A stretch of 64,000 bases of DNA, taken from NCBI GenBank assembly GCA_965207495.1, contig OZ242287.1:2780880-2844879 (forward strand). Reading direction: 5' to 3'. This DNA is from Caldilineaceae bacterium. Lineage in GTDB: Bacteria > Chloroflexota > Anaerolineae > Caldilineales > Caldilineaceae. Below are positions 2,304 to 61,394 of this stretch, in pieces (position 1 is the stretch's first letter; each line of letters begins with the position of its first letter). The notes below the pieces were generated by a model, which ran no database searches, was not told the origin of the DNA, and saw nothing but the letters and a program-made list of their open reading frames with translations. Position numbers and translations under genes: made by a program.

Positions 2304-3926
2304 ATGACCATCAAACAACGCGCCTCCTTCTGGGCATTCGTTTCAATGGCTGCCCTGCTCCTCACCGCATGCGTTCCCTTACCCGCCGACCCCGGCATCC
2401 CGGTCAGTGGACCCGCGCCGGAAACACCGCTGATTTCGATTCACAACCCACTCGTGATCCCTATAGGGGACACTCCCTCGTCGTCAGGCGGACCGTTCCA
2501 GGATTGGCCGGCGTTCGAGGTCGAGCAGCACCGAATCAGAGTTTTCCATCCCAATCGGTGGCTCTTCTTGCCCACACAGGAAGAACTGGCTGCTCTCCGC
2601 CTGCAATTGGGCGCAGACGAAGCCGCCGCAGCCTTCTTCGAAGAGCGGGAAGGCTACGTCCAATCCCTGACACAGCCCGCCCAGGCCGAATACTTTGCCG
2701 GCGCCGGATTTCCTTACGACCCTGACTCACCGCCAATGGAAACCAACGGTTTCCACCTGCTCGCAGTACCCACCGAGGGCCGCACTCTCGAAACCTATGC
2801 CCGCAAGCTGAGCGACGAAATAGGGGCATCAGGATTGGCAGTGGTGGAAGGAATCGAGATCGGTCCTGGTCTGCGGCCGTGGGGTGAGGAAACAGCTTCG
2901 ATCCAATACAGAATTGACGGCACGCAGGCTTTCGGAAACCGGGTCGTCACAGTCCCCGACGCCGAGGTGGTCGGCTGGCGAGTGATACTGCTTTCTCCCG
3001 ATGGCGGGACCTTTCTCACAGTCACCTACGACGTATGGGGCGAGTACGCAGAGTGGGTTGAGGGTCTGCTGCGCGAGGTCGTTCGGCGAATCCAGTGGGT
3101 CGACGATCCTGCCTATCTGCCCCGCTCAGCGCCGTTGCTGACGCTCGATCACCTAATGAACGTCCGCGCGGGTCCAGGGACCGACTATCCAATCCTCGGC
3201 AAGGCCGGCGTGGGCGACCAGTTCCCCGCGATCAGCCAGCGCCCTTCCGGCGGGCCGGCCGGCGGCTGGTGGCAGATCGAGTACCGCGGTCAACTCGGTT
3301 GGCTGCACGGCGACTATGTCACCGCGACAACTGGCGCCGAAGACGCCCCGCAAGCAGACGAATCCGGCTGGCTGACATATGAGGACGAGACGAGGGGGCT
3401 GTCGCTTTCACTTCCGGCCGACTGGCGCTACTTTGACCCGGCGCGGCCCACAGAGGCCGACCTGGCCCTCCTGACCACCGCCAACAAGGTATCTGAAGAA
3501 CAGTTCGACGTTTTGGGCCTGGGTGAGATTGTATCGGACATGAGCCTCCGACGCGACGACGCCGTTATCGGTCTTGGTCTGCAGACGAGCCCGCAGGATA
3601 GTGATGCCAGCAACTTTATGCTTGTCTTCTCGTTCGCGGCTAATGGCCAAAACCTCGAAGGATACGCCCAGGCAGCCGCCGAGCAGACCTACAGCATCGA
3701 GCCAGCTGTTGTTGAACTGGTACAGGCCATGAGGCCGTCAGGCGAAGACGTGGTATCCATCCGATACGGTGAATACGCAACCAATAACGTGGTATGGCAG
3801 TTCTGGCTCCTCTCACCAGACGGCGAAAAACTCATCGCCCTTGGGTTCAACATTCACCGCGACCAAATTGAGGATCTGGAACCTGTGATTACCGAAGTCG
3901 TGAACCGGTTACACTGGATCGAATGA
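2304..3926 (+). CDS. secreted lipoprotein with central bacterial SH3 (SH3b) domain flanked by two related domains
   Basis: ORF 2283..3926. ATG at 2304 preferred (GGGAAGTGAG upstream). Signal peptide with lipobox-like LLTAC. SH3b motif LMNVRAGPGTDYPILGKAGVGDQF..WWQIEY.GQLGWLHGDYV. Both flanking halves end with related strings (..WRVILLSPDGGTFLTVTYDVWGEYAEWVEGLLREVVRRIQWV / ..WQFWLLSPDGEKLIALGFNIHRDQIEDLEPVITEVVNRLHWIE). Confidence 0.7.
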   Translation: MTIKQRASFWAFVSMAALLLTACVPLPADPGIPVSGPAPETPLISIHNPLVIPIGDTPSSSGGPFQDWPAFEVEQHRIRVFHPNRWLFLPTQEELAALRLQLGADEAAAAFFEEREGYVQSLTQPAQAEYFAGAGFPYDPDSPPMETNGFHLLAVPTEGRTLETYARKLSDEIGASGLAVVEGIEIGPGLRPWGEETASIQYRIDGTQAFGNRVVTVPDAEVVGWRVILLSPDGGTFLTVTYDVWGEYAEWVEGLLREVVRRIQWVDDPAYLPRSAPLLTLDHLMNVRAGPGTDYPILGKAGVGDQFPAISQRPSGGPAGGWWQIEYRGQLGWLHGDYVTATTGAEDAPQADESGWLTYEDETRGLSLSLPADWRYFDPARPTEADLALLTTANKVSEEQFDVLGLGEIVSDMSLRRDDAVIGLGLQTSPQDSDASNFMLVFSFAANGQNLEGYAQAAAEQTYSIEPAVVELVQAMRPSGEDVVSIRYGEYATNNVVWQFWLLSPDGEKLIALGFNIHRDQIEDLEPVITEVVNRLHWIE

Positions 3927-46629: not shown

Positions 46630-47736
46630 CTAAACGGGATGCAAACCTGGGAATCCCAATCCGGTCGCCTCGTCCCAGCCGCACATGAGATTCATGCTCT
46701 GCAGAGCGCTGCCTGCCGCCCCCTTCACCAGGTTGTCAATGGCGCAAAGCGCGACAACGCGACCCGTGCGCTCGTCCAGTTCGAAACCAACGTCCGCATA
46801 ATTGCTTCCGCTCAGGATCTTCGGCTCGGGGTAACGGTAAATGCCGGTCTTCTCCTTGACGATCCGCACAAAGGGCTCGCCGCGGAAGGTCTGACGGTAA
46901 GCCCGCCACAGATCCCGTTCGCTGACACCCTCTTTGACGAAAACATGGGCCGTCGCCAGCACCCCCCGAACATTGTCGACCGCGGTTGCGCTCATATGGG
47001 CGGCTACCGCGCCATAGTCGTCCGCTTCGGCCTGCGCCAGCGCCTGCAGCAGCTCCGCAGTGTGCCGGTGACCGGTAGGCGCGAAACTGCGCATCACCCG
47101 CGCCCGCTCCGGGTGGTGCGTCGAGTCCCCAGCCCGGTTGCCGCCTTCACTGCTGCCGACCTTGACTTCGCAGATCAAATCCCGCTGCGGGTCTGCAAGC
47201 CCGGCCGAGAAAAGCGGCCACACAGCCAGCGTACTGGCGGTAGCATTGCAGCCAACCCCACTCACATAGTGTGACCCGCGGATTTTCTCGCGGAACAACT
47301 CCGGTAAGCCATACACAAATCTGCCAAGCCACTCCGGCGCGCCGTGTTCTTTACCGTACCAGTCCACATAAGCCTGCGGATCCCGCAGGCGGAAGTCGGC
47401 ACTCATGTCGACGATACGATCGGCCAGCCGCGCGAATTCGGCGATGCGCCCCATCGCGCCGCCGTGCGGAAGCCCCAATACCAGCAGATCGCAAGGCGCC
47501 AGCTCGGCCGAACTGACAAACTTCAGCCTCGTGCGCCCGCGCAAGTTCGGATGGGTGAAATGAACGAACGAACCGGCGTTGCGTTCGCTCGTTACCTGGG
47601 CAATGTCGACGTGAGGATGTTCCAATAGGAGACGCAGCAACTCGCCGCCGGCATAGCCGCTGGCCCCCAAAATTGAAACTGAAACCTTTGAGCTGGAACT
47701 GACCTTCCCCACGCTTTGTACGCTCACATCTTGCAT
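46630..47736 (-). CDS. lysY: N-acetyl-gamma-glutamyl-phosphate reductase homolog; by context [LysW]-aminoadipate 6-phosphate reductase
   Basis: 368 aa. ILGASGYAGGELLRLL Rossmann start and the catalytic-Cys motif GVGCNATA. Directly downstream of lysW-lysX. Confidence 0.8.
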   Translation of the reverse strand: MQDVSVQSVGKVSSSSKVSVSILGASGYAGGELLRLLLEHPHVDIAQVTSERNAGSFVHFTHPNLRGRTRLKFVSSAELAPCDLLVLGLPHGGAMGRIAEFARLADRIVDMSADFRLRDPQAYVDWYGKEHGAPEWLGRFVYGLPELFREKIRGSHYVSGVGCNATASTLAVWPLFSAGLADPQRDLICEVKVGSSEGGNRAGDSTHHPERARVMRSFAPTGHRHTAELLQALAQAEADDYGAVAAHMSATAVDNVRGVLATAHVFVKEGVSERDLWRAYRQTFRGEPFVRIVKEKTGIYRYPEPKILSGSNYADVGFELDERTGRVVALCAIDNLVKGAAGSALQSMNLMCGWDEATGLGFPGLHPV

Positions 47737-47760: not shown

Positions 47761-48642
47761 CTACTTGTTAGCCGCCTCCCAACCGTCACGCCCAACTTGC
47801 AGAGCAAAATCGGCGATGCGGCCCGGTATGTTTACCCCGGTCGGCATTACGCTGTTCCGGAACTCCATCGTGTAGTTCACCTCGTTCACGAGCAGCCCGC
47901 GATCCGGGTCCTCCAGAACGTCGATCGCCACGCACCCGCCACCGACCGCCTTGGCCGCCCCCACGCAAAGATCATTCAGTTCCGGCGTTACCGGACAAAC
48001 AGAAGCCTGACCGCCGCGCGCCGTATTCGTAATCCAATGGGCCGAGTCTCTGTAGATGGCGCAGATCGTCTCGCTGCCCACGGTAAAGGCCCTGATATCG
48101 CGTCCCGGCTTCTCGATATATTCCTGTATATAGAAAATGCTGTGATGGTATGTTCCCAGCACCTCCTTGTGTTCAAGAACCGTCTCCGCAGACTCGCGGT
48201 CGTTGATCTTACTCAACAACCGCCCCCACGATCCAATCGACGGCTTCATCACAACCGGATAGCCCAACTCCTCCATCGCATCCAGTGCGGCGTCGGTAGT
48301 GAAGGCAACCTGCGTGCGAGGCGACGGAATGCCCGCCGCGGTCAGCGCACTCGTTGTCTGAAGCTTGTCGCCGCAAACATCAGCCACCTGCACTGAATTG
48401 ACCGTTGGAATGCCGCGGTCGTTTAGAATGCGCAGACTGACCAGCGCCCGCCCATGATGGATACAGCGTTCGACGATCACATCGTAATCTTCGTAACGCG
48501 CCGTCCGTTCCTCCCCTCCGGTGATGTCGAAGATTAGCTTCCGATCATCAAGCAGGTCGAACGTAGCCCCCCTCTGTGTAAATTCCTCGAACAGCAGCTT
48601 CTCCTCGGCGCGCACGCGGCTGTAGAGGATGCCAACTCGCAT
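47761..48642 (-). CDS. lysX: RimK-type ATP-grasp ligase; alpha-aminoadipate--LysW ligase
   Basis: ORF 47761..48660. ATG at 48642 preferred ([17 protein letters not shown]), 5 nt after the lysW stop. ATP-grasp fold strings ..[15 protein letters not shown].. and ..VNEVN. Confidence 0.85.
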
Positions 48643-48647
48643 CTGTC

Positions 48648-48833
48648 CTATTCCCCCCAATCTTCGTCCTCTTCCGGAGCCAGCTCAAGCGCTACCGGGT
48701 CGATCCCAATTACCTCTAGATCCACCCCGCATTCGCCGCACTGGACGATTTCGTTCTCCATCACGTCATTTAGCTCAATCTCGCCGAAGCATTCCGGACA
48801 TTCGGCCACAGCGGTAACGGTTTTCACAGCCAT
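48648..48833 (-). CDS. lysW: amino-group carrier protein LysW
   Basis: 61 aa. Zinc-ribbon CPEC...CGEC and an acidic tail ending EEDEDWGE, the hallmark LysW C-terminus. Confidence 0.9.
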
Positions 48834-48905
48834 TCCCCATCTCCTGGTCTCTGATAATCTCGTTTGTCAATTATGAAACGTAACTGCTAAGCCAAAACTT
48901 TTTTT

Positions 48906-49046
48906 GCAAACCTGAATGAGGCGAGCGCTGGTTTCCTCACTCCTCACTCCTCACTCCTCACTCCTCTTCACTCTCTCCTCGCCTTTGGGCGTTCGGGCCT
49001 TCGGCCCTCCCTTGTGCGGGGGCTGCGCCCCCGCAACGCCCCGCCC
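48906..49046 (+). repeat. modular intergenic repeat, copy C
   Basis: GCAAACCTGAATGAGGCGAGCG, four CCTCACT 7-mers (48935-48962), CTCTCTCCTCGCC, then the 58-nt GC-rich block (48989-49046). The block has hairpins GGGCC-TTCG-GCCC.. (48995-49007) and GCGGGGGC-TGC-GCCCCCGC (49016-49034). Lies between the Nudix gene and lysW. Confidence 0.85.
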
Positions 49047-49221
49047 AAAAAACCCGCCTCATCCACCTAACGCCGTAATTCCAGCGGTGCGTCTCGTCAA
49101 AAGTGGCGGCGGCCAACGGGTACACGATGAGTTAGCCCGAAAGGCTGCGTGACTGAAGGTCTGGTCCACACGGGCACTGTATATGGCTTAGTAGCGACAA
49201 TAAAACTTTGAAAATCAATGT

Positions 49222-49671
49222 TCACCAGTGCGCCGCCACTGCCACTTCGCCCGCTGCATATTCGGCGATCCGTCGCCGCGTGCCAGGTGAAATCCCCTCA
49301 GGCAGTTCGTCGATAGCAAAACAGTTGACGCACTCTATTTCCCTGTTGCTCGCATTTCGCCAACTAAAGTTTTCGCATACGAAGACAACGACGTGATCGC
49401 TCTTTCCTTCGAAAAAGTTGCTGTAAACGCCGAACAGCCGCAACTCCTGCAGGACCGCCCCAACCTCCTCGCCAGCCTCACGACAAATGGCCGCCTCCAA
49501 AGTCTCACCCGCCTGCACCCCGCCGCCCGGAAGATACCAGCCGTCCAGATATGTGTGCCTGACCAGCAAAACCTTTCCCTCGTCAACGGCCATTAGCCTC
49601 ACACCGACTGTCAGTGGTCGGGTCAGTCGCCAGTACAACCGCCGCAGAAAATACAGCAATCTCAAGAACAT
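49222..49671 (-). CDS. NUDIX hydrolase
   Basis: 149 aa. Nudix box GGGVQAGETLEAAICREAGEEVG (GX5EX7REUXEEXGU). Confidence 0.85.
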   Translation of the reverse strand: MFLRLLYFLRRLYWRLTRPLTVGVRLMAVDEGKVLLVRHTYLDGWYLPGGGVQAGETLEAAICREAGEEVGAVLQELRLFGVYSNFFEGKSDHVVVFVCENFSWRNASNREIECVNCFAIDELPEGISPGTRRRIAEYAAGEVAVAAHW

Positions 49672-49716: not shown

Positions 49717-50274
49717 CTACCCACTACCTTCGGAGGCCGGCCCCGCCAACGCGAGGCGCCGCTTGACCTGCTCTACCAATCCCCCTGCCTCCACAATCTC
49801 CTGCACCGTAGCGCTCAACGCCGGAAACGCAAACTGGCCGGACCTGCATTCGATTAGCCTTCCTTCTAGGTCGACCGAAACAAGCTCCTGCCCTTGGATC
49901 GCCTGCGCAGCCTCCGGGCAAACGATGGCCAACAGGCCGTTGTTGATGGCGTTACGGTAGAAAATCCGCGCAAAACTTTCCGCAATGACAGCACCCACTC
50001 CGTTGTAAACAAGACAGGTCGCCGCCTGTTCACGGCTGGAGCCGCAACCGAAATTGCGGCCGCCTATGACCAGATCGCCGCGCCGCACATTAGACGCGAA
50101 GGTCGGGTCCAGATCTTCCAATGCGTGGCTGGCGATCTCCTCCTGCCCTTTGACCGTGTAGGTGTACTTGCCCGGAAACAGTACATCGGTATTGATGTTA
50201 TCTCCGTATTTCCAGGCCCTGCCCTGAATTTCCACTGATCCACCCTCCGCTGCCGAAAACTGCCTGGCGTTCAA
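49717..50274 (-). CDS. hacB: aconitase-family dehydratase small subunit (LeuD-like); by context homoaconitase small subunit
   Basis: 185 aa. ..[15 protein letters not shown].. and [14 protein letters not shown] motifs of the short LeuD/HacB type. A separate leuCD pair exists at 18473..20493. Confidence 0.75.
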
Positions 50275-50320: not shown

Positions 50321-51688
50321 TCAGGCTATGCTTCTCGGATCGGCAATCCTGCCCGCAACCGCCGACGCCGCCACCACCGCCGGATTCGCCAAATAGATCT
50401 CCGCGTCCTTCGTGCCCATGCGCCCCCGGAAATTCCGGTTCGCGCTCGAAATAGTAACTTCACCTGTTGCCGGTACACCCATATGATTGCCCATGCAGGG
50501 CCCGCACCCCGGCGTACCGATGGCAGCGCCAGCGGCAACAAGCGCCTGAATGTACCCCCGTTCTAAGGCCTCTTGCAAAACAAGGCTGGATGCCGGAATC
50601 ACCAGCAAGCGCGTCCCAGCAGCTACCTGTCGACCCCGCACAACCTCGGCCGCCTCGGCGATATCTTCAAGACGTCCATTGGTGCAGGTACCGATAAATG
50701 CCTGCTGCACCTTGGTACCTGCCACGGCCGAAAGCGGCGCGACATTGTCCACAGTGTGCGGGCACGAAACCGTCGGCTCCAACGCCCCGGCGCTGTACAG
50801 GTAGGTCGCGGCATACCCGGCGCCTTCATCAGGCAAGAGTTGCAACTTCTCAACATCCGCACGACTCTCTTCCGCGAGGCCTTCCTGCCTCATTCTCGCC
50901 GCCCGCCGCGCCAGAGCAGCCTCCAGATAGGACCTCGTCTTGCCGTCCGGCCGGATGTACGAAGACTTCGCCCCGAATTCGGCCATCATATTCGCAAGCG
51001 CCATCCGCGAATCGACACTCATCGCCTCGATGCCGCTGCCGCTGAACTCAATCGACGCGTAAAGACCCCCGTCTGCCCCCCAGTCGCCGATAATACGCAA
51101 GGCGAAGTCCTTGGCTGTAACGCCCCTGGGCAGCTCCCCTTCCAGCACAATGCTGATCGACTCCGGCACGCGCAGCCACAACTCGCCGGTCGCCCACAGA
51201 GCTGCAACTTCGCTGCGCCCAATCCCCGCGCCGAACGCGCCAAGCCAGCCAAAGTGCGGCGTATGGCTGTCCGCGCCGAGAACTGTCTGCCCCGGCAGAA
51301 CCAATGCCTCTTCACTGAGAACCTGGTGGCAAATCCCCCTGCCTACCTCAAAAAAACTGCTGATGCCCTGCTCCCGAACGAATTCGCGAATTTCGGCGTG
51401 ATTCTGCGCGTGGCGCGTCGTCGGCGCTGGCACGGCATGGTCCAACGTAATCGCCAGCTTATCTGGGATCACGACCCGGCCTTGACCAAACTGCAGCCAG
51501 ATCTCTCGGATGGCGGCCGTATTGTCGTGGCTCAAAACAACGTCAGGCTGCACGTCCACGACTTCGCCAACGTCGACTCTTACGCGCCCAGCCGCTCGCG
51601 CCAGCGCCTTCTGCGCAAATGTCTGTGCTTCAGGGCCGGCTGAATTTGACTGCACCCCCGATAGTTGGGAAGGTGACTTTTGGTTCAT
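50321..51688 (-). CDS. hacA: aconitase-family dehydratase large subunit; by context homoaconitase large subunit
   Basis: 455 aa. ..LSHDNTAAI.., [17 protein letters not shown] and the CGPCMG Fe-S ligand motifs. Confidence 0.75.
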
Positions 51689-51699
51689 CTCAGTTCCCC

Positions 51700-52857
51700 T
51701 TAAGCCGGCGGAGGCGCCACAGTCACCGCCCGACTGTGGTACTCTCGCAGCAACACATCCACATCATCCAGGCTCAACTTTCGCTGGTCCGCCTCCACCT
51801 TGATGTGCGCGGTCACCTCCTTCACCTGCGGATCCGTCAGGTCCAGCTGCAGCTGCTCGGCGCGCTGCTTGACCGCGTTCCACCCCGTGAGTCGATGTGC
51901 AATGTGCAGATAGCGGGTCAGACCGAAGTCCTCCGGATCCAGGATCTCGTAAGTATCCGGATTGTTAAGAATCGCCTTGGCATGAATGCCTGCCTTGTGC
52001 GTGAAAGCTGTGTAACCGGTAATATAGTTGTTAAATGGCACATCAACGCCCACGATCTCGGCAACAAAGTTCTCCACCTCACGCAACATCGGCAGATTGT
52101 ATTTGCTGCGAATCTGATCGGGATCTTGCGCATACATGCGCGCCACCAGGCCCCCCAGCGGCGTAATCCCGTTGCGCTCGCCAATCCCCAGCACCGAAGT
52201 ATCAACGTGCGTCGCCCCGGCCGCCAGCGCACAGTAGGAATTTGCGATCGCGCAGCCCGTATCATTGTGCCCGTGAAACTCGATATCGCAGGAGACCACC
52301 CCGCGCAGCGTTCGCACCAGGTCATGCACCTGCAGCGGCGTGGCGATTCCAACCGTGTCCGCGATCCCCACTCTGTCAACCCCAATCTGGTCGACCTCGC
52401 GGTAGACCGTCAGCAGGTCGACAAGGTCGCTGCGGAAAGAGTCCTCGCTGCTGAAACGGACCTCCAGACCCTGGCTCTTGATGAACTCGACAACCTGCAC
52501 CGCACTGTCGATGATTTCGCGGATCGACTTGCCATGCGAGAACTCGCGCAGGTAGCTGCTCGTGCCGAAGAGGACGTCAATGCCGTCAACGCCGGTGTCC
52601 ACGGCCAGACGCGCGTCATCCAGATGGCAGCGTGTATGGGTCAGCAGTTTCGTGCTCAGCCCCAATCCCGCGATGCGTGAGCAATCCGCACGGCTCTGCG
52701 GGCTGGCGGCAGGAGAAGTCAACTCCAGATATTCAACGCCGAAGGCATCCAATAGCCGGGCGATTTCATCCTTCTGCCCGCTGTCAAAAAAAGCATTGGC
52801 AAACTGCTCACCCTCCCGCAATGTCGACTCGATTATCGAAAAATGTTCTAAGCTCAT
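51700..52857 (-). CDS. hcs: homocitrate synthase
   Basis: ORF 51700..52953 (TTG). ATG at 52857 preferred ([19 protein letters not shown]). [12 protein letters not shown]. About 385 aa, lacking the LeuA regulatory domain. First gene of the lysine cluster. Confidence 0.8.
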
Positions 52858-52887
52858 CCTCGCGCTCCCGCCGATCTCAATGGCAAT

Positions 52888-52921
52888 AAAAAAACCGGTC
52901 CATCCTGTCTGGAATGGCCGG
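52888..52921 (-). terminator. intrinsic terminator in the homocitrate synthase leader (candidate attenuator)
   Basis: Minus strand: CCGGCCATTCC-AGACA-GGATGGACCGG (about 10 bp with bulges) followed by TTTTTTT. The U-tract ends 30 nt before the hcs ATG. Confidence 0.65.
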
Positions 52922-52965
52922 TGGCTACGGTTGCAACATCTGAGCAGGCGCAAACAACAGACAGG

Positions 52966-53031
52966 TCAGTCTGGATTCCGCTTCTTGCTCTTTATGCAAT
53001 GCAACTCAGGATACATCCTGTATATTCTCAT
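52966..53031 (-). CDS. candidate lysine leader peptide (21 aa)
   Basis: Manual translation, minus strand, ATG 53031..53029 to TGA 52968..52966: MRIYRMYPELHCIKSKKRNPD (AAG AGC AAG AAG cluster). The stop lies inside the first of three mutually complementary segments. Internal ATG alternative gives MYPELHCIKSKKRNPD. Confidence 0.45.
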   Translation of the reverse strand: MRIYRMYPELHCIKSKKRNPD

Positions 53032-53111
53032 CCACTTACTTGCCAACTGCAGGGACTGACTTTAGTCCCACCTCGATTGCTCAATTTATACCTGATTCTC
53101 AATCAGCACAA

Positions 53112-53140
53112 ATAATACTGAATCATATCGCCGTTGTCAA
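53112..53140 (-). promoter_or_regulatory. near-consensus sigma70-type promoter of the lysine cluster
   Basis: Minus strand TTGACA (53140..53135) - 17 nt - TATTAT (53117..53112), about 75-80 nt upstream of the leader ATG. Confidence 0.6.
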
Positions 53141-53240
53141 ATTCGACAACCCTCTGCGTGCATCCCCAAAAGGAAGTGAACTCATTTGTAACTTAGGTAT
53201 CGACAAGCCTCTCCCCCGTCCTCACATCCATCCTCAATAA

Positions 53241-53305
53241 ATCGCCCAATCACTGACCCCTGACCCCTGACCCCTGACCCCTGACCCCTGACCCCTGCAG
53301 TTCGG
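53241..53305 (+). repeat. modular intergenic repeat, copy D (heptamer array only)
   Basis: ATCGCCCAATCACTGA + five perfect CCCCTGA units (53257-53291) + CCCCTGCAG TTCGG. The 5' flank ATCGCCCA(A/T)TCACTGAC is shared with copy A (1815-1831). Confidence 0.9.
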
Positions 53306-53987
53306 CTCTCCGGGAATTGGCAGCCAGTTGACCAGAACCGGGTGAATAAAACAGGACAAAGGCCGAGTCAATTCGCTATGCTATGTCAGTGGGCCGCAAA
53401 GGAGCCCCTAACCCAACCAATAATCAGGAAAAATGCCAGGGATTCAGCACCGTATTCCCGTTCCACGAGCGTTGAGGGTGGAAGACCTTCAGTTCCTGGC
53501 ATCGGAGAGTCCAAGACAAGTGCAGCAGTCAACATGAGTAGCGCGCCTACACAAGCAGTCGGCAAACGGAAAAGGGCGCTTCTGTTCCATGGAATGCCTG
53601 CTCAGTTATTCGCCATCGGCGAACCCTTACCCTACTTTCCCGGTTCCGTTCAATCTATAGACGCCTTCATAAACGCATGCATTATGCAGGTTGGACATTT
53701 TCTATACGGCACAGCTACGTAGGGTTGTCGCCTACCTTTGTAGAAGTGCGATTCGCTCCACTCGGATGGGTCCAGGTGAAGGCTGAGCTACAGACACTTT
53801 TCGCCTGATTTACTCTGGTAGTCCGACAGTTCTGTGAGGCCTGTAACCCGCGATTTCGCTCCATTTTCCGAGGTCCGCCGCAAATGCACAACTGCTTGAC
53901 ACCTCCAATGTGGATAACATAAATTTTCACTGAGGATCGTGCGACATTTTGCGATAACACGTTAGGTAAAGGTGAGTCTTGGACCGA

Positions 53988-56900
53988 ATGAGGCAAAGGA
54001 CAGAGGCGCTACAAAGGCGGAAAGAGTTCCTGATCGGTTCACTGATCGGCCTCTGCGTCATGCTGCTTGCTTTGCTGGCGGCCGTCGTAACGCCGCGTCC
54101 CCGTGCCGCCCTGGCTCAGGACGCCCCGCGGGTAGCGATTTCTATAGGCGAAGCTACGCTGACCCAGGGAGACGTCACCTACGTCCATGCCGGATTCTAC
54201 AACATGCCCCAAGATCCCGATGACGCCACCGCATTCGGCACTATATCCTTCCGGTACTATTTTGATCGTAACTCTGACGGCTCTTGGACCAACGCAGACA
54301 ACTGCCTGACGGGGCTGGTCGGAAGTGACAAATATATCACCAACGCATATTGGAGATCCCCTTGGGACCACGGTCCACACCCTCTTGAACTTACAACGAC
54401 TTGCCCGGTCGGCGACTACAGGTTTCGGGTGGTCGTAACGGATAGGGACACCACCCCCCACACCAAACTTGTTACCAGCACACATGACTTCAGAGTAAAT
54501 GTAGGCCCCTCTGTGACAATCGAAATGCCGTCTGGTCCCTACTACCGCGGCACAGCTATCAATCCAACCATCAAATTCAATGACCTGGCACAAGGCGCCG
54601 ATTACACTTACAAGGGGCATCTGATGGCCAGGAACCCCTCCAACTATGCCGATGTCTGCGAAGGAACGGGGCTGGACAGACACAACAAATTCACTTTAGA
54701 TGATGTCTCCGGAAACCCAGTGCAAAAGTCGGTCACCATCACCGACAACTGTCCGGCAAATGAGTACTACATAGATGTCGTTTTGTACGACTCCGACAAC
54801 CGGAAGCGAGGATCGGACAGGAAAGAATTCGAAATCACTACGGATCCCAACGCCACTCCGTCCGTAAGCGTCAGCATGTCCGAGAGTTCCCCGGTCGCTC
54901 CAGGTACGGAATTCACCGTCACTTTCTCGTTTATGGATATTCAACCCGGCACTCAGACGAGGAATACCGATTATCTGACCAATACCAGCACAAATCAGGC
55001 AGTAGGCAGTATGGACTGCGGAGGGAGCCTGGTAGGATGGGGGCAGGACGTACAATCCGCGTTCACTAGCAACCCCTATGTAAATCGTGTGACGATTCCC
55101 TCCGACTGTCCCGCCGGCGCCTATAAGATGGTAAGCGAAATAGAGGACAGATTAGGAAATGACATTATTTCCGGTTCGATCGACTTCACCATCGGCGATC
55201 CAAATCTAACCCCAACCGCGCCAACTGTTTCCAATATGACGGCCAAACAGAATTCGCCGTTCAGCCAGCAGCTTCCCGAGGGAACCGGCGGCGACGGTAC
55301 TTTGACTTACAACGCGACCGGCCTGCCTACGGGTCTCACCTTCACGAGCTCAACGCGCACCATCGCCGGCACACCATCTGCCTCAGGAACATCCACCGTC
55401 AGATACACAGTCACGGATAGCGACAATGACTCGGACTACGTAGAATTCACGATCACGGTCGACCCAGATCTGACGCCTACCGCGCCAAGCGTTTCCGGTT
55501 ATACTGCAAAACAGAATACGCCATTCACCCAGCAACTGCCTGAGGGGAGCGGCGGAGACGGAACACTAACGTACGATGCAACGGGTCTGCCCGTAGGTCT
55601 AACCTTCATTGCCACAACTCGTACGATTACAGGCACGCCGACAGGCACAGGGTCATCTCCTGTCCGATACACGGTCACCGACAGCGACGGTGACTCGGCC
55701 CACGTTGATTTCAACATCACGGTTGAAGCCGATCTGACCCCTACCCTCCCCGCCATTTCAGGGTACAACATTAGGGTAGGCGTACAATTCACCCAGCAGC
55801 TGCCCGCGGCGACAGGGGGAGATACGCCTCTGGAGTACTCCGTCACAGATCTACCTCAAGGTCTCAGCTTTACCGAAGCGACGCGTACGATTACGGGCAC
55901 GCCAACAACCGCGGAAGCCCCCACAGTGACCTATACGGTTCGAGACAGTGACGGCGACGAAGTGAGTACGACATTTACAATCACAGTCGCCGCCGATCTC
56001 ATGCCGACGCTCTCAACCATATCGGGATATACGGCCAGAGTCGGGTCGCTATTCACTGAGGTGCTGCCGGCGGCGACAGGGGGCGACACGCCGCTGGAAT
56101 ACTCCGTGACAGACCTTCCCAACGGCCTCAACTTTATCGAGACGACGCGTACAATTACGGGAACGCCGACAGCAGTGGAATCTCCGACCGTGACCTACAC
56201 GGTGAGCGACGATGACGGCGACGAAGCGAGCGAAACGTTTACGATCGCGGTTGCAGCCGATTTGACGCCGTCACTTCCTTCGATAACAGGTTTCACGGCA
56301 ATGGTTGGCTCGCTGTTCAGCGAGGTATTGCCGGCAGCAACCAGCGGCGATACGCCGCTGGAATACTCCGTAACAGACCTTCCGAACGGCCTCAGCTTTA
56401 CCGAATCGACGCGGACCATCACGGGCACCCCCACAGCGGTGGGATCTCCGACCGTGACCTACACAGTGACCGACGACGACGGCGACGGAGACAGCAAGAC
56501 CTTTACGATCACAGTCGCAGCCGATCACATGCCTGCATTTGGCACCATTGCGGGCTATACGGCCAGAGTTGGGTCGCTGTTCACCGAGGTGCTGCCGGCG
56601 GCTACCGGGGGCGACACACCTCTGGAATATTCGGTCTCAGACCTACCCGACGGTCTCAGCTTTACCGAAACGACGCGTACAATTACGGGCACGCCGACAA
56701 AGGTGGAAGCCCCCACGGTGACCTATACGGTTCGCGACGATGACGGAGACGAAGGGAGTACGACCTTTACAATCACAGTCGCTGCCGATCAAATGCCGAC
56801 GCTTTCCACCATTTCCGGCTATACGGCCAGAGTCGGGTCGCTGTTCACTAAGGTGCTGCCGGCGGCGACAGGGGGCGATGCACCGCTGGAATACTCCGTG

Positions 56901-59900
56901 ACAGACCTTCCCAACGGCCTCAACTTTATCGAGACGACGCGTACAATTACGGGAACGCCCACGACAGAGGAATCCCCGACCGTGACCTACACGGTGAGCG
57001 ACGATGACGGCGACCAAGCGAGCGAAACGTTTACGATCGCGGTCGCAGCCGATCTGACGCCGTCACTTCCCACCATATCGGGTTACACGGCCAGAGTAGG
57101 TTCGCCGTTCAGTGAAGTGCTGCCGGCGGCAACAGGGGGCGATACGCCGCTGGAATACGCCGTAACAGACCTACCCAACGGCCTCAGCTTTACCGAATCG
57201 ACGCGGACCATCACGGGCACGCCGACAACCGTGGAATCACCGACCGTAACCTACAAGGTGCAGGACGATGACGGCGACGATGCGAGCAAGACCTTTACAA
57301 TCGCCGTCGCCGCCGATCTTCAGCCAACACTGGCGACCATAACCGACACCCACGCCAAGCTGACAAAACTGTTCACCCTTCAGTTGCCCGCTGGCACCAG
57401 CGGAGACGGCGACCTGGACTACAATGCAACTGGACTGCCTCCCGGTCTTACCTTCGTCACATCCACTCGAACGATCACAGGTACACCGACGACTGCCAAC
57501 AGATATGAAGTCACTTACACAGCAACCGATGAGGACGAAGACGTCGCGCGGCAGACGTTCTTCATCGAAGCATTCGCAATGCCTTCCCTGCAAGCGGTAC
57601 AAGACTTCATGGCAACGAAGGATGACGTATTCACACTCGTGCTAACCGCTGTCTCAGGCGGAAGGGCGCCGTTCGACTACGATGCCACCCCTCTGCCGAC
57701 TGACCTGTCTTTTGTGGAATCCTCACTGACCATCACTGGTACGCCGACAGTCATTGAAGACATCACCGTCACATTCTCAGTAGAGGACGAGGACGGAGAC
57801 ACGGCGAGCCGCGAATTCAAGATCACCGTCAGCGAGGGCGACACAGCACCTGCATTCCCCTACGAGATCCCCGACTTCGATCTGCGAGTGGGCAATCCTT
57901 TTGCGGTGACGCTGCCCAGCGCGACTGGCGGGAACGCCCCGTATACCTATACGATTTCAGGACATCCCAACACGCTCACATTCAATTTGGCCACCAAAAG
58001 ACTCGCTGGCACGCCCAACGCGAGCCAGACCGGCGTGCACCAGGTTACCTACACCGTGACGGACAGCGATCTCGACGAAGTATCACAGACTTTCGAGCTG
58101 GATGTCGCAGCAGACAACCAACCTTCAACACCGTCCATAGGCGACATGCACATGAAGGTCGGCAGTAGTCTGCGGGCGGAGTTGCCGGCAGGTACAGGCG
58201 GAGACCCACCCTATACATATACGATCTCGGCTTTGCCGTCCGGATTGACCTTCAACCTGACAACGCGAATCTTGTCTGGCAGGCCAAACTCGGCCGGCGC
58301 AACAACCGTAACATATACAGTTCTTGACAACGACAGTGACTCCGCTGCTAAAGATTTTACGATCAACGTCTATACACTACCGTCTCTGTCAAACGTCTCA
58401 GATTCGTCAGGAATGAAGGACGAACTATTCACCCTCACGCTTCCCACCGCTTCCGGAGGCAGGTCCCCGCTCGAATACTCCGTAACCGGTCTGCCAGCCG
58501 GCTTAGCGTTTATTGCAAGCTCGCGCGTCATTACCGGAACGCCGACCCAAGTCGAGATTGCAAACGTTACCTACACTGTTTCGGACAAAGACAACGATCG
58601 AGACAGCGTCACGTTCAAGATAACCGTGACCGACCTGGATCAAACTGTGGTCAACAATGGCGGCAACAATGGCGGCAACAATGGCGGCAACAATGGCGGC
58701 AACAATGGCGGCAACAACGGCGGCAACAATGGCGGCAACAACGGCGGCAACAATGGCGGCAACAACGGCGGCAACAATGGCGGCAACAACGGCGGCAACA
58801 ATGGCGGCAACCAGCAGAACCCGCCGGCACTGACCCTTTATGACTCGACAGGCTTCTCTGCCACCGTCGGAGAGCAATTCACACAGCAACTTCCGGCGGC
58901 AAATGGAGGAACACCACCCTACAGGTATAGCGTCTCCACCCTGCCCGACGGCCTGACTTTCAATAGCGGTACCCATACGATATCGGGAACGCCCACAACT
59001 GAAGGCGCGACGACCGTCACCTATACCGTGCATGACAGCAACTCCAATTCTGTCGGCGATGACTTCACAATTACAGTCAATGCAGCGCAAACCAACCCAC
59101 AGAGTCCCCAACCACTGACAGTCGTAGATGTGACAGGATTCACGGCGACAGTAGGGGAGCTATTCGAGCAGCAGCTGCCTTTTGCAAGTGGAGGTTCACT
59201 GCCATACGCATATAGGGTCACGACCCTCCCCGCCGGCCTGGACTTCATAATGTTAAGGCGTACCATTACGGGAACGCCCACGATTACGGGGACGACTGTA
59301 GTCACTTACACTGTGACCGACGGCGACTTTTTCTCTGCAAGCGACGCTTTCACCATAACCGTTCAGAGTGCCGGCAGTAACCAGGGCAGCGGCAATCAGG
59401 GCAGCGGCAATCAGGGTAGAGATAATCAGGGCGGCGGCAATCAGGGCGGCGGCAATCAGGGCGGCGGCAATCAGGGCGGCGGCAACCAGGGAGGCAGCAA
59501 CCAGGGAGGCAGCAACAAGGGCAATTCTGGCAACCAGGGTAACTCTAACAACAACAATCAGCAGAAATGGGTTCCACCGTCATCGTATTCGCCGCCTCCC
59601 CAGCAACAGTGGTCGCGCTCTGCCGTCCCGGTAGCAATTACCATCCCATCCTGGCTGAACGTACGCAGAGGGCCCGGGCTCGACTATGAGGTGATATCCA
59701 CGGTTTCTCAAGGAACTCGGGGAAACATCTACGGCAGGGACCCCGCTGACAACTGGTTCCAGGTCCAGATTGATCAAATAAGTAACATGGTGTGGCTCTG
59801 TCAGAACCTTGCCACCGTCGAAGGCTCTTTGGACAACGTACGATTGCTGGCACAGTGGGAAATCGATCTCATTCCCAAGCCGGCCGACGGCCCCGTGGCG

Positions 59901-61394
59901 ACTACAACGCCGGCAATTATGAACGTGCGCGCTGGCCCAGGGCTGACCTACGAAATTCTGACAACTGTGACCAAAGGGACGCAAGCAACTATCATTGGAA
60001 TCGGCCCTAACGCCGAGTGGTACAAAGTCACACTGGACGCAATAAACACGCCTGCCTGGATTTACGCAGGTCTGACAACGGTTGAAGGCTCAATTGGAGG
60101 CGTCAAACAGTACACGCAAGCAGAAGTCGACGCATTCACGTCAGCAAATGTCGACGGCTACGACTTAGCCAGTGCCAATGCAACGGACACGTGCAGCAGC
60201 AACCCAATCGCCGTCACCACCCCTGCGATTCTCAACGTACGCAAGGGCCCTGGTACAGAATACGAGATAGTTACAACCGTCGTGGCAGGCACGCGGGCAG
60301 AAATCATCGGAATCAACACGCAGGAGGAGTGGCTCCTGGTGGAGTTGGCAAGCCTGACCGAACCTGCCTGGATCTATAAAGACCTGACGACGGTGGTCGG
60401 CTCGCTTGCCGGGGTCACGCGAACTGATTCAGGACAGGTGAGTCAGCCCAACATCGTCACAGATACGGACCGTCCGATTGCCGTAACCTATCCGTCCCTG
60501 GTCAATATCCGTGTAGGCCCAGGCCTGACTTACCAAATCCTCAAAACTGTCGGCCAAGGTACTAGGGCCCAGATCGTGGGACTGAGTCCCGATGAGAACT
60601 GGTATCTGGTCGAAATCGACGGCTTGAGCCAACTGGGCTGGATTCGCGAGGACCTTACCGTACTCGTTGGGTCGCTGAACAATGTGAAGCGCATCACTGC
60701 TGCCGAAATCGCAATGCTGCCTGTCGCCATCGTTGACACGCCCATTCTCAACGTGAGGTCCGGTCCGGGCACTGGCTACGGTCTCGTGACGACGATTTCA
60801 CAGGGATCTTGGGTTCAGATTATCGGTGTCAACACACAAACCGACTGGTTCCAGGTAAAACTGTACGGCGTATCAGGTCAGACTTGGGTCTACCGCGATC
60901 TAACTAATCTCGCCGGACTCCTTGCCGGTGTGACCCAGATCTCCACAAGCACCGTGGTGGCGTCCGAATACTACCCTGATTTGCAGGCGACCACGATTCT
61001 GGAAGCAGCCTCTACTGTCGAGGCGACCACCACACAGCAGGTCGTCGTAAATGCGATATCCGTCGACCTTTCTCTTCCAGAAAACGGCAATATCGATCTC
61101 GATGTCAGCTGGACTGATGCAGATTTCTGTTCGGACCTCTACTCGATCTACTACAGGTCCAATTCCGACTCGACCACCTACTTCTCTTTGGAGAACGCCG
61201 TCATAGTAACGACCTCAACCTCGAAGAGCTTGAGCTTCCTCACACTGCCGAATAGAAGTCTGATTTCTGCCTGGTGCGGAACGCAAAACAGCGGTCGCCA
61301 AATCGCGGAAGTCCAGATCAACCCAAGTGAGGAAGGTACCTACAGTTCAATACCGACTCAGCAGGAAACAGGAACGGTAGCCACCGTACCCTGA
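53988..61394 (+). CDS. giant membrane-anchored surface protein: 3 Cys-paired Ig-like domains, 15 He_PIG/dystroglycan-type cadherin-like repeats, 2 Asn/Gly-rich linkers, 5 SH3b domains, C-terminal beta domain
   Basis: ORF 53979..61394 (TTG). ATG at 53988 preferred (AAGGTGAG upstream). N-terminal TM/signal anchor FLIGSLIGLCVMLLALLAAVV. Repeats carry the LPxGL(S/T)F..TRTITGTPT..TVTYTV.D.DGD motif. SH3b units read ..LNVR.GPG..YE...TV..GT.A.I.G...W..V. Confidence 0.85.
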   Translation: MRQRTEALQRRKEFLIGSLIGLCVMLLALLAAVVTPRPRAALAQDAPRVAISIGEATLTQGDVTYVHAGFYNMPQDPDDATAFGTISFRYYFDRNSDGSWTNADNCLTGLVGSDKYITNAYWRSPWDHGPHPLELTTTCPVGDYRFRVVVTDRDTTPHTKLVTSTHDFRVNVGPSVTIEMPSGPYYRGTAINPTIKFNDLAQGADYTYKGHLMARNPSNYADVCEGTGLDRHNKFTLDDVSGNPVQKSVTITDNCPANEYYIDVVLYDSDNRKRGSDRKEFEITTDPNATPSVSVSMSESSPVAPGTEFTVTFSFMDIQPGTQTRNTDYLTNTSTNQAVGSMDCGGSLVGWGQDVQSAFTSNPYVNRVTIPSDCPAGAYKMVSEIEDRLGNDIISGSIDFTIGDPNLTPTAPTVSNMTAKQNSPFSQQLPEGTGGDGTLTYNATGLPTGLTFTSSTRTIAGTPSASGTSTVRYTVTDSDNDSDYVEFTITVDPDLTPTAPSVSGYTAKQNTPFTQQLPEGSGGDGTLTYDATGLPVGLTFIATTRTITGTPTGTGSSPVRYTVTDSDGDSAHVDFNITVEADLTPTLPAISGYNIRVGVQFTQQLPAATGGDTPLEYSVTDLPQGLSFTEATRTITGTPTTAEAPTVTYTVRDSDGDEVSTTFTITVAADLMPTLSTISGYTARVGSLFTEVLPAATGGDTPLEYSVTDLPNGLNFIETTRTITGTPTAVESPTVTYTVSDDDGDEASETFTIAVAADLTPSLPSITGFTAMVGSLFSEVLPAATSGDTPLEYSVTDLPNGLSFTESTRTITGTPTAVGSPTVTYTVTDDDGDGDSKTFTITVAADHMPAFGTIAGYTARVGSLFTEVLPAATGGDTPLEYSVSDLPDGLSFTETTRTITGTPTKVEAPTVTYTVRDDDGDEGSTTFTITVAADQMPTLSTISGYTARVGSLFTKVLPAATGGDAPLEYSVTDLPNGLNFIETTRTITGTPTTEESPTVTYTVSDDDGDQASETFTIAVAADLTPSLPTISGYTARVGSPFSEVLPAATGGDTPLEYAVTDLPNGLSFTESTRTITGTPTTVESPTVTYKVQDDDGDDASKTFTIAVAADLQPTLATITDTHAKLTKLFTLQLPAGTSGDGDLDYNATGLPPGLTFVTSTRTITGTPTTANRYEVTYTATDEDEDVARQTFFIEAFAMPSLQAVQDFMATKDDVFTLVLTAVSGGRAPFDYDATPLPTDLSFVESSLTITGTPTVIEDITVTFSVEDEDGDTASREFKITVSEGDTAPAFPYEIPDFDLRVGNPFAVTLPSATGGNAPYTYTISGHPNTLTFNLATKRLAGTPNASQTGVHQVTYTVTDSDLDEVSQTFELDVAADNQPSTPSIGDMHMKVGSSLRAELPAGTGGDPPYTYTISALPSGLTFNLTTRILSGRPNSAGATTVTYTVLDNDSDSAAKDFTINVYTLPSLSNVSDSSGMKDELFTLTLPTASGGRSPLEYSVTGLPAGLAFIASSRVITGTPTQVEIANVTYTVSDKDNDRDSVTFKITVTDLDQTVVNNGGNNGGNNGGNNGGNNGGNNGGNNGGNNGGNNGGNNGGNNGGNNGGNNGGNQQNPPALTLYDSTGFSATVGEQFTQQLPAANGGTPPYRYSVSTLPDGLTFNSGTHTISGTPTTEGATTVTYTVHDSNSNSVGDDFTITVNAAQTNPQSPQPLTVVDVTGFTATVGELFEQQLPFASGGSLPYAYRVTTLPAGLDFIMLRRTITGTPTITGTTVVTYTVTDGDFFSASDAFTITVQSAGSNQGSGNQGSGNQGRDNQGGGNQGGGNQGGGNQGGGNQGGSNQGGSNKGNSGNQGNSNNNNQQKWVPPSSYSPPPQQQWSRSAVPVAITIPSWLNVRRGPGLDYEVISTVSQGTRGNIYGRDPADNWFQVQIDQISNMVWLCQNLATVEGSLDNVRLLAQWEIDLIPKPADGPVATTTPAIMNVRAGPGLTYEILTTVTKGTQATIIGIGPNAEWYKVTLDAINTPAWIYAGLTTVEGSIGGVKQYTQAEVDAFTSANVDGYDLASANATDTCSSNPIAVTTPAILNVRKGPGTEYEIVTTVVAGTRAEIIGINTQEEWLLVELASLTEPAWIYKDLTTVVGSLAGVTRTDSGQVSQPNIVTDTDRPIAVTYPSLVNIRVGPGLTYQILKTVGQGTRAQIVGLSPDENWYLVEIDGLSQLGWIREDLTVLVGSLNNVKRITAAEIAMLPVAIVDTPILNVRSGPGTGYGLVTTISQGSWVQIIGVNTQTDWFQVKLYGVSGQTWVYRDLTNLAGLLAGVTQISTSTVVASEYYPDLQATTILEAASTVEATTTQQVVVNAISVDLSLPENGNIDLDVSWTDADFCSDLYSIYYRSNSDSTTYFSLENAVIVTTSTSKSLSFLTLPNRSLISAWCGTQNSGRQIAEVQINPSEEGTYSSIPTQQETGTVATVP
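55725..57308 (+). repeat. six consecutive 264-nt (88-aa) He_PIG repeat units with a 792-nt higher-order periodicity
   Basis: Units start at aa 583, 671, 759, 847, 935 and 1023 (ORF-track numbering). Unit 4 vs unit 7 is about 93% identical in protein, 5 vs 8 about 85%, 3 vs 6 about 75%. Confidence 0.85.
58653..58811 (+). repeat. 12-bp in-frame microsatellite (AAYAAYGGCGGC) x ~13 encoding (NNGG)n
   Basis: AACAATGGCGGC / AACAACGGCGGC alternating perfectly. Encodes aa 1559-1611, NNGGNNGG.... Confidence 0.92.
59376..59564 (+). repeat. 15-bp in-frame tandem repeat encoding (NQGxG)n followed by an Asn-rich tract
   Basis: AACCAGGGCAGCGGC / AATCAGGGCGGCGGC units. Encodes NQGSGNQGSGNQGRDNQGGGNQGGG...NSNNNNQQ (aa 1800-1862). 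Confidence 0.9.

Follow-up and report, generated by a model that had tools for sequence, protein, structure and literature searches.

Lysine synthesis in most bacteria is under the control of the L-box riboswitch. Leader-peptide attenuation with lysine codons has reportedly been described by Tsubouchi et al. in 2005 (J Biol Chem) for the alpha-aminoadipate lysine cluster of Thermus thermophilus, and to our knowledge regulation of the alpha-aminoadipate/LysW pathway in bacteria has been studied only in Thermus. The present analysis concerns a leader of about 215 nucleotides (nt) in a stretch of 64,000 nt (the window, meaning the whole stretch analysed) from a Caldilineaceae bacterium (Chloroflexota), where it lies on the minus strand, 5' of the homocitrate synthase gene (hcs) of a LysW-dependent alpha-aminoadipate lysine cluster. 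This leader is probably a transcription attenuator of the ribosome-mediated, leader-peptide type, which responds to charged tRNA-Lys and governs hcs-hacA-hacB-nudix-lysW-lysX-lysY.

A sequence-only reading of the window had proposed a near-consensus promoter, a 21-codon open reading frame (ORF) with the codons AAG AGC AAG AAG, a switch strand with two alternative partners and a terminator followed by seven T residues. All of these parts were recovered at the positions given there, and the leader comprises the following elements:

53112..53140, minus strand: sigma-70-type promoter, with the -35 element TTGACA (53140-53135), a 17-nt spacer and the -10 element TATTAT (53117-53112), matching 11/12 consensus positions in the promoter scan
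52966..53031, minus strand: leader ORF, 21 codons from the ATG at 53031 plus TGA (52968-52966), peptide MRIYRMYPELHCIKSKKRNPD, from the ORF list and the conserved frame
52981..52992, minus strand: candidate regulatory codons 14-17, AAG AGC AAG AAG (K-S-K-K); columns 18-24 of the family alignment hardly vary and have columns 65-71 as pairing partners
52931..53004, minus strand: whole P1 hairpin, GUUGCA ... UGCAAC, enclosing the Lys codons and segments 1 and 2, from minimum free energy (MFE) and centroid folds
52969..52974, minus strand: segment 1, CCAGAC (codons Pro-Asp, right before the stop), pairing with segment 2 (columns 35-39 with 49-53)
52958..52965, minus strand: segment 2, the switch strand, CCTGTCTG, pairing with segment 1 or segment 3
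52942..52948, minus strand: outer 3' strand of P1, CCTGCTC, pairing with GAGCAAG (Lys/Ser codons, 52990-52984)
52904..52911, minus strand: segment 3, CAGACAGG, the terminator loop and the first two G of the 3' arm, forming 8 perfect base pairs (bp) with segment 2
52888..52921, minus strand: intrinsic terminator, CCGGCCATTC (52921-52912), loop CAGACA, GGATGG-A-CCGG (52905-52895) and T7 (52894-52888), from the terminator scan and folding

The terminator has a 10-bp stem and a hairpin energy of -13.5 kcal/mol, its upper stem is detected by the terminator scan, and 30 nt separate the end of its T-tract from the hcs ATG at 52857, as the sequence-only reading had stated. Segment 1 (CCAGAC) pairs with GUCUG of segment 2. 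A feature beyond that reading is a long hairpin around the 1:2 hairpin, present in both MFE and centroid folds, in which the Lys/Ser codons GAGCAAG pair with CCUGCUC. The fold of the whole leader is moderately better than that of shuffled sequences (z = -2.35), and the complementarity between segment 2 and the terminator apex exceeds that of 99.7% of equal-length windows of the locus. Promoter-like sites number 5 in the scanned region against 1.4 expected. In every locus of the window clade a TTGACA-17-TAxxAT promoter lies 78-82 nt 5' of the leader ATG (31-120 nt in most others), giving a 5' untranslated region of about 70 nt in this clade.

On this anatomy, leader translation, ribosome stalling and kinetic competition would together produce a response to lysine. 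Transcription would start from the TTGACA/TATTAT promoter, and the leader would encode a 21-residue peptide with Lys-Ser-Lys-Lys at codons 14-17. With no ribosome on the Lys codons, GAGCAAG:CCUGCUC and CCAGAC:GUCUG would pair and lock up segment 2, whereupon the terminator hairpin would form and transcription would end at the T7 tract. With lysine in ample supply, the ribosome would reach the UGA and, because segment 2 begins 2 nt past the stop codon, would mask it, which would lead to termination too. When Lys-tRNA is scarce, the ribosome would stall on the Lys codons and open the 5' strand of the hairpin; the freed segment 2 (CCUGUCUG) would then pair with the terminator apex (CAGACAGG) once the apex is transcribed. 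The resulting 8-bp 2:3 helix would be sterically incompatible with the terminator stem, and RNA polymerase would read on into hcs.

This scheme has much in common with the Proteobacterial attenuators (trp, his, leu, thr, ilv, pheA; RF00513, RF00514, RF00512, RF00506). Shared traits are a promoter-proximal peptide in which the cognate amino acid is abundant, placement of the regulatory codons within segment 1, 1:2, 2:3 and 3:4 pairings that exclude one another, a stop codon set so that a terminating ribosome would mask segment 2, and a terminator more stable than the antiterminator, with control that would be kinetic. The E. coli trp attenuator is likewise kinetic. The Chloroflexota leader differs in that the cognate amino acid would be lysine, the Rfam models of the Proteobacterial leaders have no match here, and the leader lacks a Shine-Dalgarno sequence. 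Furthermore, segment 3 here consists of the apical loop and the top base pairs of both arms, instead of the whole 5' arm of the terminator.

With the L-box riboswitch (RF00168) the element shares the role of a cis-acting leader that governs lysine biosynthesis genes via a terminator; it differs in having no five-helix junction, and sensing would go through translation instead of ligand binding. The sequence-only reading had seen no L-box-like core, and the Rfam scans agree. No riboswitch, T-box or known leader was matched at gathering thresholds over the window, and a scan of 52700-53400 at E<=10 returned only two chance-level matches (E=5 and E=7.5) to unrelated families. The L-box, the T-box (RF00230) and known leader families were therefore ruled out as candidates, having no covariance-model match even at E<=10.

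The Thermus-type leader was compared using 80 loci from Deinococcota and other phyla, fetched with the sequence of the Thermus enzyme (PDB 2ZTJ). Thermus hcs loci carry a promoter, an ORF MLARAKKLGRRGVG with AAA AAA, and a terminator CCGGCCCG-AGUU-CGGGCCGG-UUUUCUUUU. In both systems a short ORF with adjacent Lys codons and an intrinsic terminator lie directly upstream of hcs in an alpha-aminoadipate cluster, and the logic would be the same, ribosome stalling preventing termination, as is said to be the case in Thermus. The two AAA codons of Thermus contrast with the 3-5 Lys codons of the Chloroflexota leaders, which are mainly AAG and are interrupted by a Ser codon contributing G-C pairs. Immediately past its Lys codons, the Thermus leader has a sequence that pairs with the 5' arm and loop of the terminator, whereas here a separate segment 2 would invade the apex. 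The hcs subtype differs as well, since the window protein (HCS) is much nearer to the fungal enzyme, as judged by E = 1.8e-179 with the S. pombe mitochondrial enzyme (PDB 3IVS) against E = 4.4e-135 with the Thermus enzyme. The covariance model of the Chloroflexota leader, called R1, has no match in the 80 Thermus-type hcs loci; because of this and of the differing pairing scheme, the Chloroflexota element lies outside the sequence family of the Thermus leader, to which it is probably analogous and not homologous.

Relatives of the leader were obtained by scanning species-representative genomes with the HCS protein, which gave 80 loci, all from Caldilineaceae or related Chloroflexota metagenome-assembled genomes (MAGs), with 79-99% protein identity. 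The same leader unit is found upstream of hcs in 78 of them. Its parts are a Lys run AAGAAGAGCAAGAAG or a near variant, CCGGAC, a stop codon and GUCUGG, then GCUUGCUC, and a terminator that is present in all loci and reads ACCGGCCAUCCAGAC(A)GGAU-N-GGCCGG followed by a U-tract. Within the 64-kb window, the R1 scan found this one unit (113 bits) and no further copies. The two loci that do not show the unit are L052, truncated at a contig end, and L040, which has no Lys run. Upstream of hcs in L040 (~2800-2950), CACTTGCTC is kept together with a weakened CCGGCC...GGCCGG-T6 hairpin, while the Lys-codon run and the CCAGAC apex are gone; this looks like a decayed attenuator.

By itself the leader ORF is not significant, as 13 ORFs of at least 20 residues occur in the same region. 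Its conservation was measured in 59 loci, chosen so that the variable region 5' of the core was non-redundant, with the ORF having to cross the Lys codons and to stop within 20 codons. An ATG-started ORF exists in the Lys frame of 53/59 loci, compared with 1/59 for each other frame. Loci without an in-frame ATG use GTG or TTG, and in L007 the TTG stands exactly at the ATG position of its clade. The predicted peptides are 13-33 residues long, their N-termini vary in sequence and length yet stay in frame, and they share a core of [N/K]K[K/Q]SKK, after which most have xxPD-stop. Of the leader codons, 18% are for lysine, against 2.3% in ten window genes, an enrichment of about 8-fold, with 198 AAG and 21 AAA codons. 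Most loci have their stop codon in the loop that separates segments 1 and 2, usually 1-7 nt 5' of segment 2, and one clade has it immediately 3' of GUCUGG (GUCUGGUGA). The conservation of the start codon argues for translation of the leader.

The pairings were assessed in an alignment of 72 distinct sequences (A1) with RNAalifold. The consensus contains three helices, namely the outer part of P1 (GAGCA-G with C-UGCUC), its inner part (segment 1:2, as in the single-sequence folds) and the terminator. For the alternative segment 2:3 pairing, 93.4% of the cells are standard pairs, compared with 25-46% after a shift of the partner by 1-3 columns. In L074 both sides of segment 1:2 are changed (CCAAAC/GTTTGG), and elsewhere an inserted U in segment 2 is accompanied by an inserted A in the terminator loop. 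The latter change was counted by script in 85 units, as the base 5' of GUCUG against the base 3' of CAGAC. The site is U-A in 37 of 85 units (the loop reading GACAGG), C-G in 23 (the loop reading GACGG), a U-G wobble in 7 and a mismatch in 18, and C faces A only once. Since the A sits in the terminator loop, this coupling points to segment 2:3 pairing as the sole constraint on it; it counts as moderate evidence, because the events are few and phylogenetically linked. Evolutionary support for the mutually exclusive pairings is thus partial.

The energetics of the switch were followed in a co-transcriptional local model that treats the 10 newest nt as buried in the polymerase. The perfect 8-bp segment 2:3 duplex proposed by the sequence-only reading has an energy of -14.3 kcal/mol, versus -13.5 for the terminator hairpin. 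With a ribosome holding Lys16 in its A site, segment 2 is free in the model and the 2:3 helix becomes the MFE structure once CAGACAGG emerges. A ribosome placed on the stop codon masks segment 2, and the upper stem of the terminator forms. If the ribosome is left out, segment 2 is held in P1, the antiterminator is absent and the terminator is free to form. Coexistence of the antiterminator with the lower terminator stem would amount to an H-type pseudoknot with zero-length connecting loops, which was judged sterically impossible, and for this reason the two states should be mutually exclusive. Together, the comparative data and the co-transcriptional model lend support to the earlier proposal that a stalled ribosome would free segment 2.

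More distant units came from a motif scan; among the matches listed, they score 41-50 bits with R1, which was built from A1, versus 113 bits for the window copy. A scan for the KKGKK-type pattern mostly returned an unrelated conserved coding region in Proteobacteria, and the Anaerolineae MAG L350 was its one useful match. The distant units share the P1 architecture, have fold z-scores of -3.9 to -6.1, and sit 5' of hcs or lysW, sometimes in tandem; the same leader type before lysW in other genomes is as expected for a lysine regulon. Across these Chloroflexota (Thermanaerothrix, Promineifilaceae, other Anaerolineae), the terminator stems are unrelated and the complementarity of the apex to segment 2 is mostly kept. 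In Thermanaerothrix, upstream of hcs, the leader is MNTTIPIIISELKKSKKIQRTPHR; the terminator has an unrelated stem (CCACCUCACC/GGUGAGGUGG) but a loop that keeps CCAGAC, and the flanks stretch the complementarity with segment 2 to 12 bp (-20.6 kcal/mol). A Promineifilaceae MAG has, upstream of lysW, a leader ending ...GQKKSKKRPQT and the terminator AGGCUUGCC-AGACGAU-GGCAAGCCU. The distant leaders end in diverse C-termini (..RTPHR*, ..RPQT*, ..RYTG*, ..PVVW*) but retain the Lys run and the pairing logic.

Tandem arrangements were seen in three of these loci. The Chloroflexota MAGs L120 (5154-5530) and L129 (7257-7550) each have two tandem units behind one promoter upstream of lysW, and L350 (4680-5070) has two behind one promoter upstream of hcs. 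Unit a of L120 and L129 encodes KKGKK, and its GGGUAAG pairs with CUUGCC (GCUUGCC), an A-U to G-C change relative to GAGCAAG/CUUGCUC. Segment 2 and apex are both changed in these units, to GGUAUACUGG with CCAGUAUC in L129 and to GGUAUGUUGG with CCAGAUACC in L120. In unit a of L350, CCGUUGUCUGG pairs with CCAGAAAACGG at -16.1 kcal/mol. The tandem units of L120 and L129 differ from one another in segment 2 and apex, with GGUAU...UGG and CCAG(A)UA(C)C in one versus GUCUGG and CCGGAC in the other, a difference that could stop the tandem units from cross-pairing. When the post-Lys region was compared with the terminator 5' arm plus loop, against same-length control windows of its own locus, the complementarity fell in the top 5% for 6/10 divergent units.

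Several observations weigh against the attenuator. Equilibrium folding kept the terminator under every ribosome mask and never formed the antiterminator, and in the local model the terminator-containing fold (-24.7 kcal/mol) is 4.7 better than the antiterminator fold (-20.0 kcal/mol); because the terminator wins at equilibrium, the switch would have to be kinetic. In the folding that the sequence-only reading had put forward as a check, the equilibrium folds spoke against the antiterminator and co-transcriptional folding, with the ribosome on Lys16, produced it. In the alignment of orthologous leaders put forward with it, the Lys-containing mini-ORF is conserved and the 2:3 complementarity is kept, but column-wise double-sided changes of segment 2:3 in the Caldilineaceae alignment number zero, which is attributed to the near-invariance of the sequences and to the informative change being an indel pair. 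Covariation in P1 and the terminator is also sparse, with double-sided changes at 2/19 pairs, as the element is nearly invariant. Among the divergent units, L142, L129b, L120b and L350b (4/10) keep only a 5-6 bp core, beyond which the complementarity is no better than background. The position of the stop codon is off in L066, L046 and L076, the ORF of L066 ending right after KK, and a search for a Shine-Dalgarno sequence 5' of the leader ATG gave none in the window clade and most other clades.

Initiation at the leader ATG bears a further remark. In contrast to its leader ORF, hcs itself has a Shine-Dalgarno sequence (GGGAG/GGAG). In the distant units L135 (1660-1720), L120 (5120-5160) and L142 (minus strand, ~3280-3330) the leader ATG stands just 9-19 nt past the -10 hexamer. 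The leader mRNA of those units may be leaderless or nearly so, which could account for the absent Shine-Dalgarno sequence.

Three other explanations were weighed. P1 and GUCUGG/CCAGAC might form a ligand- or factor-dependent switch in an untranslated cis-regulator, either a new lysine or metabolite riboswitch or a protein- or tRNA-bound RNA, in which the ORF is incidental. Such an RNA would fit the very high nucleotide conservation of AAGAGCAAGAAG, GUCUGG, CUUGCUC and the terminator apex, the lack of a Shine-Dalgarno sequence, and the conserved terminator loop, which recalls ligand- or factor-binding RNAs. It is nevertheless very unlikely, since it leaves unexplained the conservation of start, frame and stop across indel-rich N-termini (53/59 against 1/59). 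The Lys run shows synonymous AAA/AAG and conservative K/Q/R/N changes, coding together with three-way pairing accounts for each conserved nucleotide block, and there is neither a conserved multi-helix junction nor an unpaired aptamer-like core, nor a match to the Rfam lysine riboswitch, T-box or any other model. The leader might alternatively be translated and respond to a signal other than Lys-tRNA charging, with the KKSKK nascent chain or Pro-Asp-stop slowing the ribosome alone or by another cue, or with the unit reporting general translation capacity. Basic-residue runs and Pro-containing C-termini do slow ribosomes, the KKSKK..PD* core is conserved at the amino-acid level, and the L066 ORF stops directly after KK. 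However, the PD codons are segment 1 itself (CCGGAC), and they become PN (CCAAAC) together with segment 2 in L074, so that the constraint is on the RNA; distant leaders share the Lys run and the pairing logic but have very different C-termini; and the controlled genes, hcs or lysW, are lysine-specific. A signal of this other kind is accordingly held to be quite unlikely.

The last explanation takes the hairpins and terminator to be constitutive, as a transcription insulator, an mRNA-stability element or a small-RNA gene, with no regulated alternative pairing and a fortuitous segment 2:3 complementarity. An essential biosynthetic operon behind a strong conserved promoter would be silenced by a strong terminator placed between them if readthrough were not regulated, and CCAGAC stays at the apex even where terminator stems are unrelated. 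The coupled U:A and C:G changes between segment 2 and the loop base, the significant complementarity in 6/10 divergent units and the conserved leader ORF also speak against this explanation; in its favour are the persistence of the terminator in equilibrium folding, an antiterminator without double-sided covariation in the main alignment and the 4/10 distant units without significant complementarity. This explanation appears highly improbable, and attenuation by a ribosome stalled on the Lys codons is preferred to all three. A more far-reaching version of that attenuator, in which the Chloroflexota leaders make up a distinct class, is unlikely. Such a class would be marked by the conserved address pair GUCUGG/CCAGAC, a switch strand that invades the apical loop of the terminator and not its 5' arm, tandem units with different pairs against cross-talk, and initiation that is perhaps Shine-Dalgarno-independent or leaderless; in its most unusual form, tRNA charging would be joined by a second lysine-specific input, coming from the conserved KKSKK..PD peptide or from the RNA.

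The attenuator proposed here leaves the known principles of attenuation unchanged and constitutes a new family within a type of regulator that is already known. It points to Chloroflexota as a second phylum with a Lys-codon attenuator, an unrelated one of its own, that stands before both halves of the pathway (hcs, lysW), sometimes in tandem, and it would offer a natural example of an antiterminator aimed at a terminator loop. Caldilineaceae and Anaerolineae are abundant, sponge- and wastewater-associated bacteria. A full-text literature search, which also missed the Thermus attenuation paper, found no published report of a Chloroflexota lysine leader. The family, with at least 80 sequences, is ready for Rfam-style curation and for annotating leader peptides missed by gene callers.

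The genes downstream of the leader, which make up the proposed regulated operon, are as follows:

51700..52857, minus strand: homocitrate synthase (hcs), first regulated gene, ATG at 52857 (TIGR02146, 2.9e-145)
50321-51688, minus strand: hacA, homoaconitase large subunit (hacA/hacB family models)
49717-50274, minus strand: hacB, homoaconitase small subunit (hacA/hacB family models)
49222-49671, minus strand: NUDIX gene, between hacB and lysW (NUDIX match)
48648-48833, minus strand: lysW (Zn_ribbon_LysW)
47761-48660, minus strand: lysX (LysX TIGR02144)
46630-47736, minus strand: lysY/argC-like reductase (argC TIGR01850)

The presence of a NUDIX hydrolase gene inside the lysine cluster is accompanied by a gap of ~390 nt (48834-49221) 5' of lysW, where the sole ORF encodes 55 residues and has no family match. 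Chloroflexota have at least two HCS subtypes, because the fungal-like type of the window occurs along with a Thermus-like type in Limnocylindria and Thermoflexus loci. Among the loci with Thermus-type HCS, xKKx leaders similar to those of Thermus occur in L214, a Deinococcales MAG, and in L207, an uncultured bacterium. L240 and L241, from low-GC uncultured bacteria, have other Lys-rich leader ORFs, MMRFRKKHSKKTKQKLFF and MMSFRKKQSKKTKQKTSF, ~120-65 nt upstream of hcs and after a TTGACA/TATAGC-type promoter, which suggests further independent lysine leaders.

Some minor observations concern the surroundings of the leader. In the L033-L044 clade, 78-199 nt separate the terminator from the hcs ATG, and this interval carries arrays of short direct and inverted repeats, e.g. 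GATTGAGAGATTGGAGATTG ... CAATCTCCTACTCTCCCAATCTC and GTGATTGGTGATTGGG ... CCCCAATCACCAATC. Divergent from the lysine operon of the window lies a gene for a 2471-residue protein (53979-61394, plus strand) with 15 He_PIG Ig-like repeats and 5 SH3_3 domains. The divergent intergenic region holds a perfect tandem heptamer array at 53253-53297, ~110 nt upstream of the leader promoter, which reads (CTGACCC) x 6.4 on the plus strand and GGGTCAG/GGGGTCA on the minus strand.

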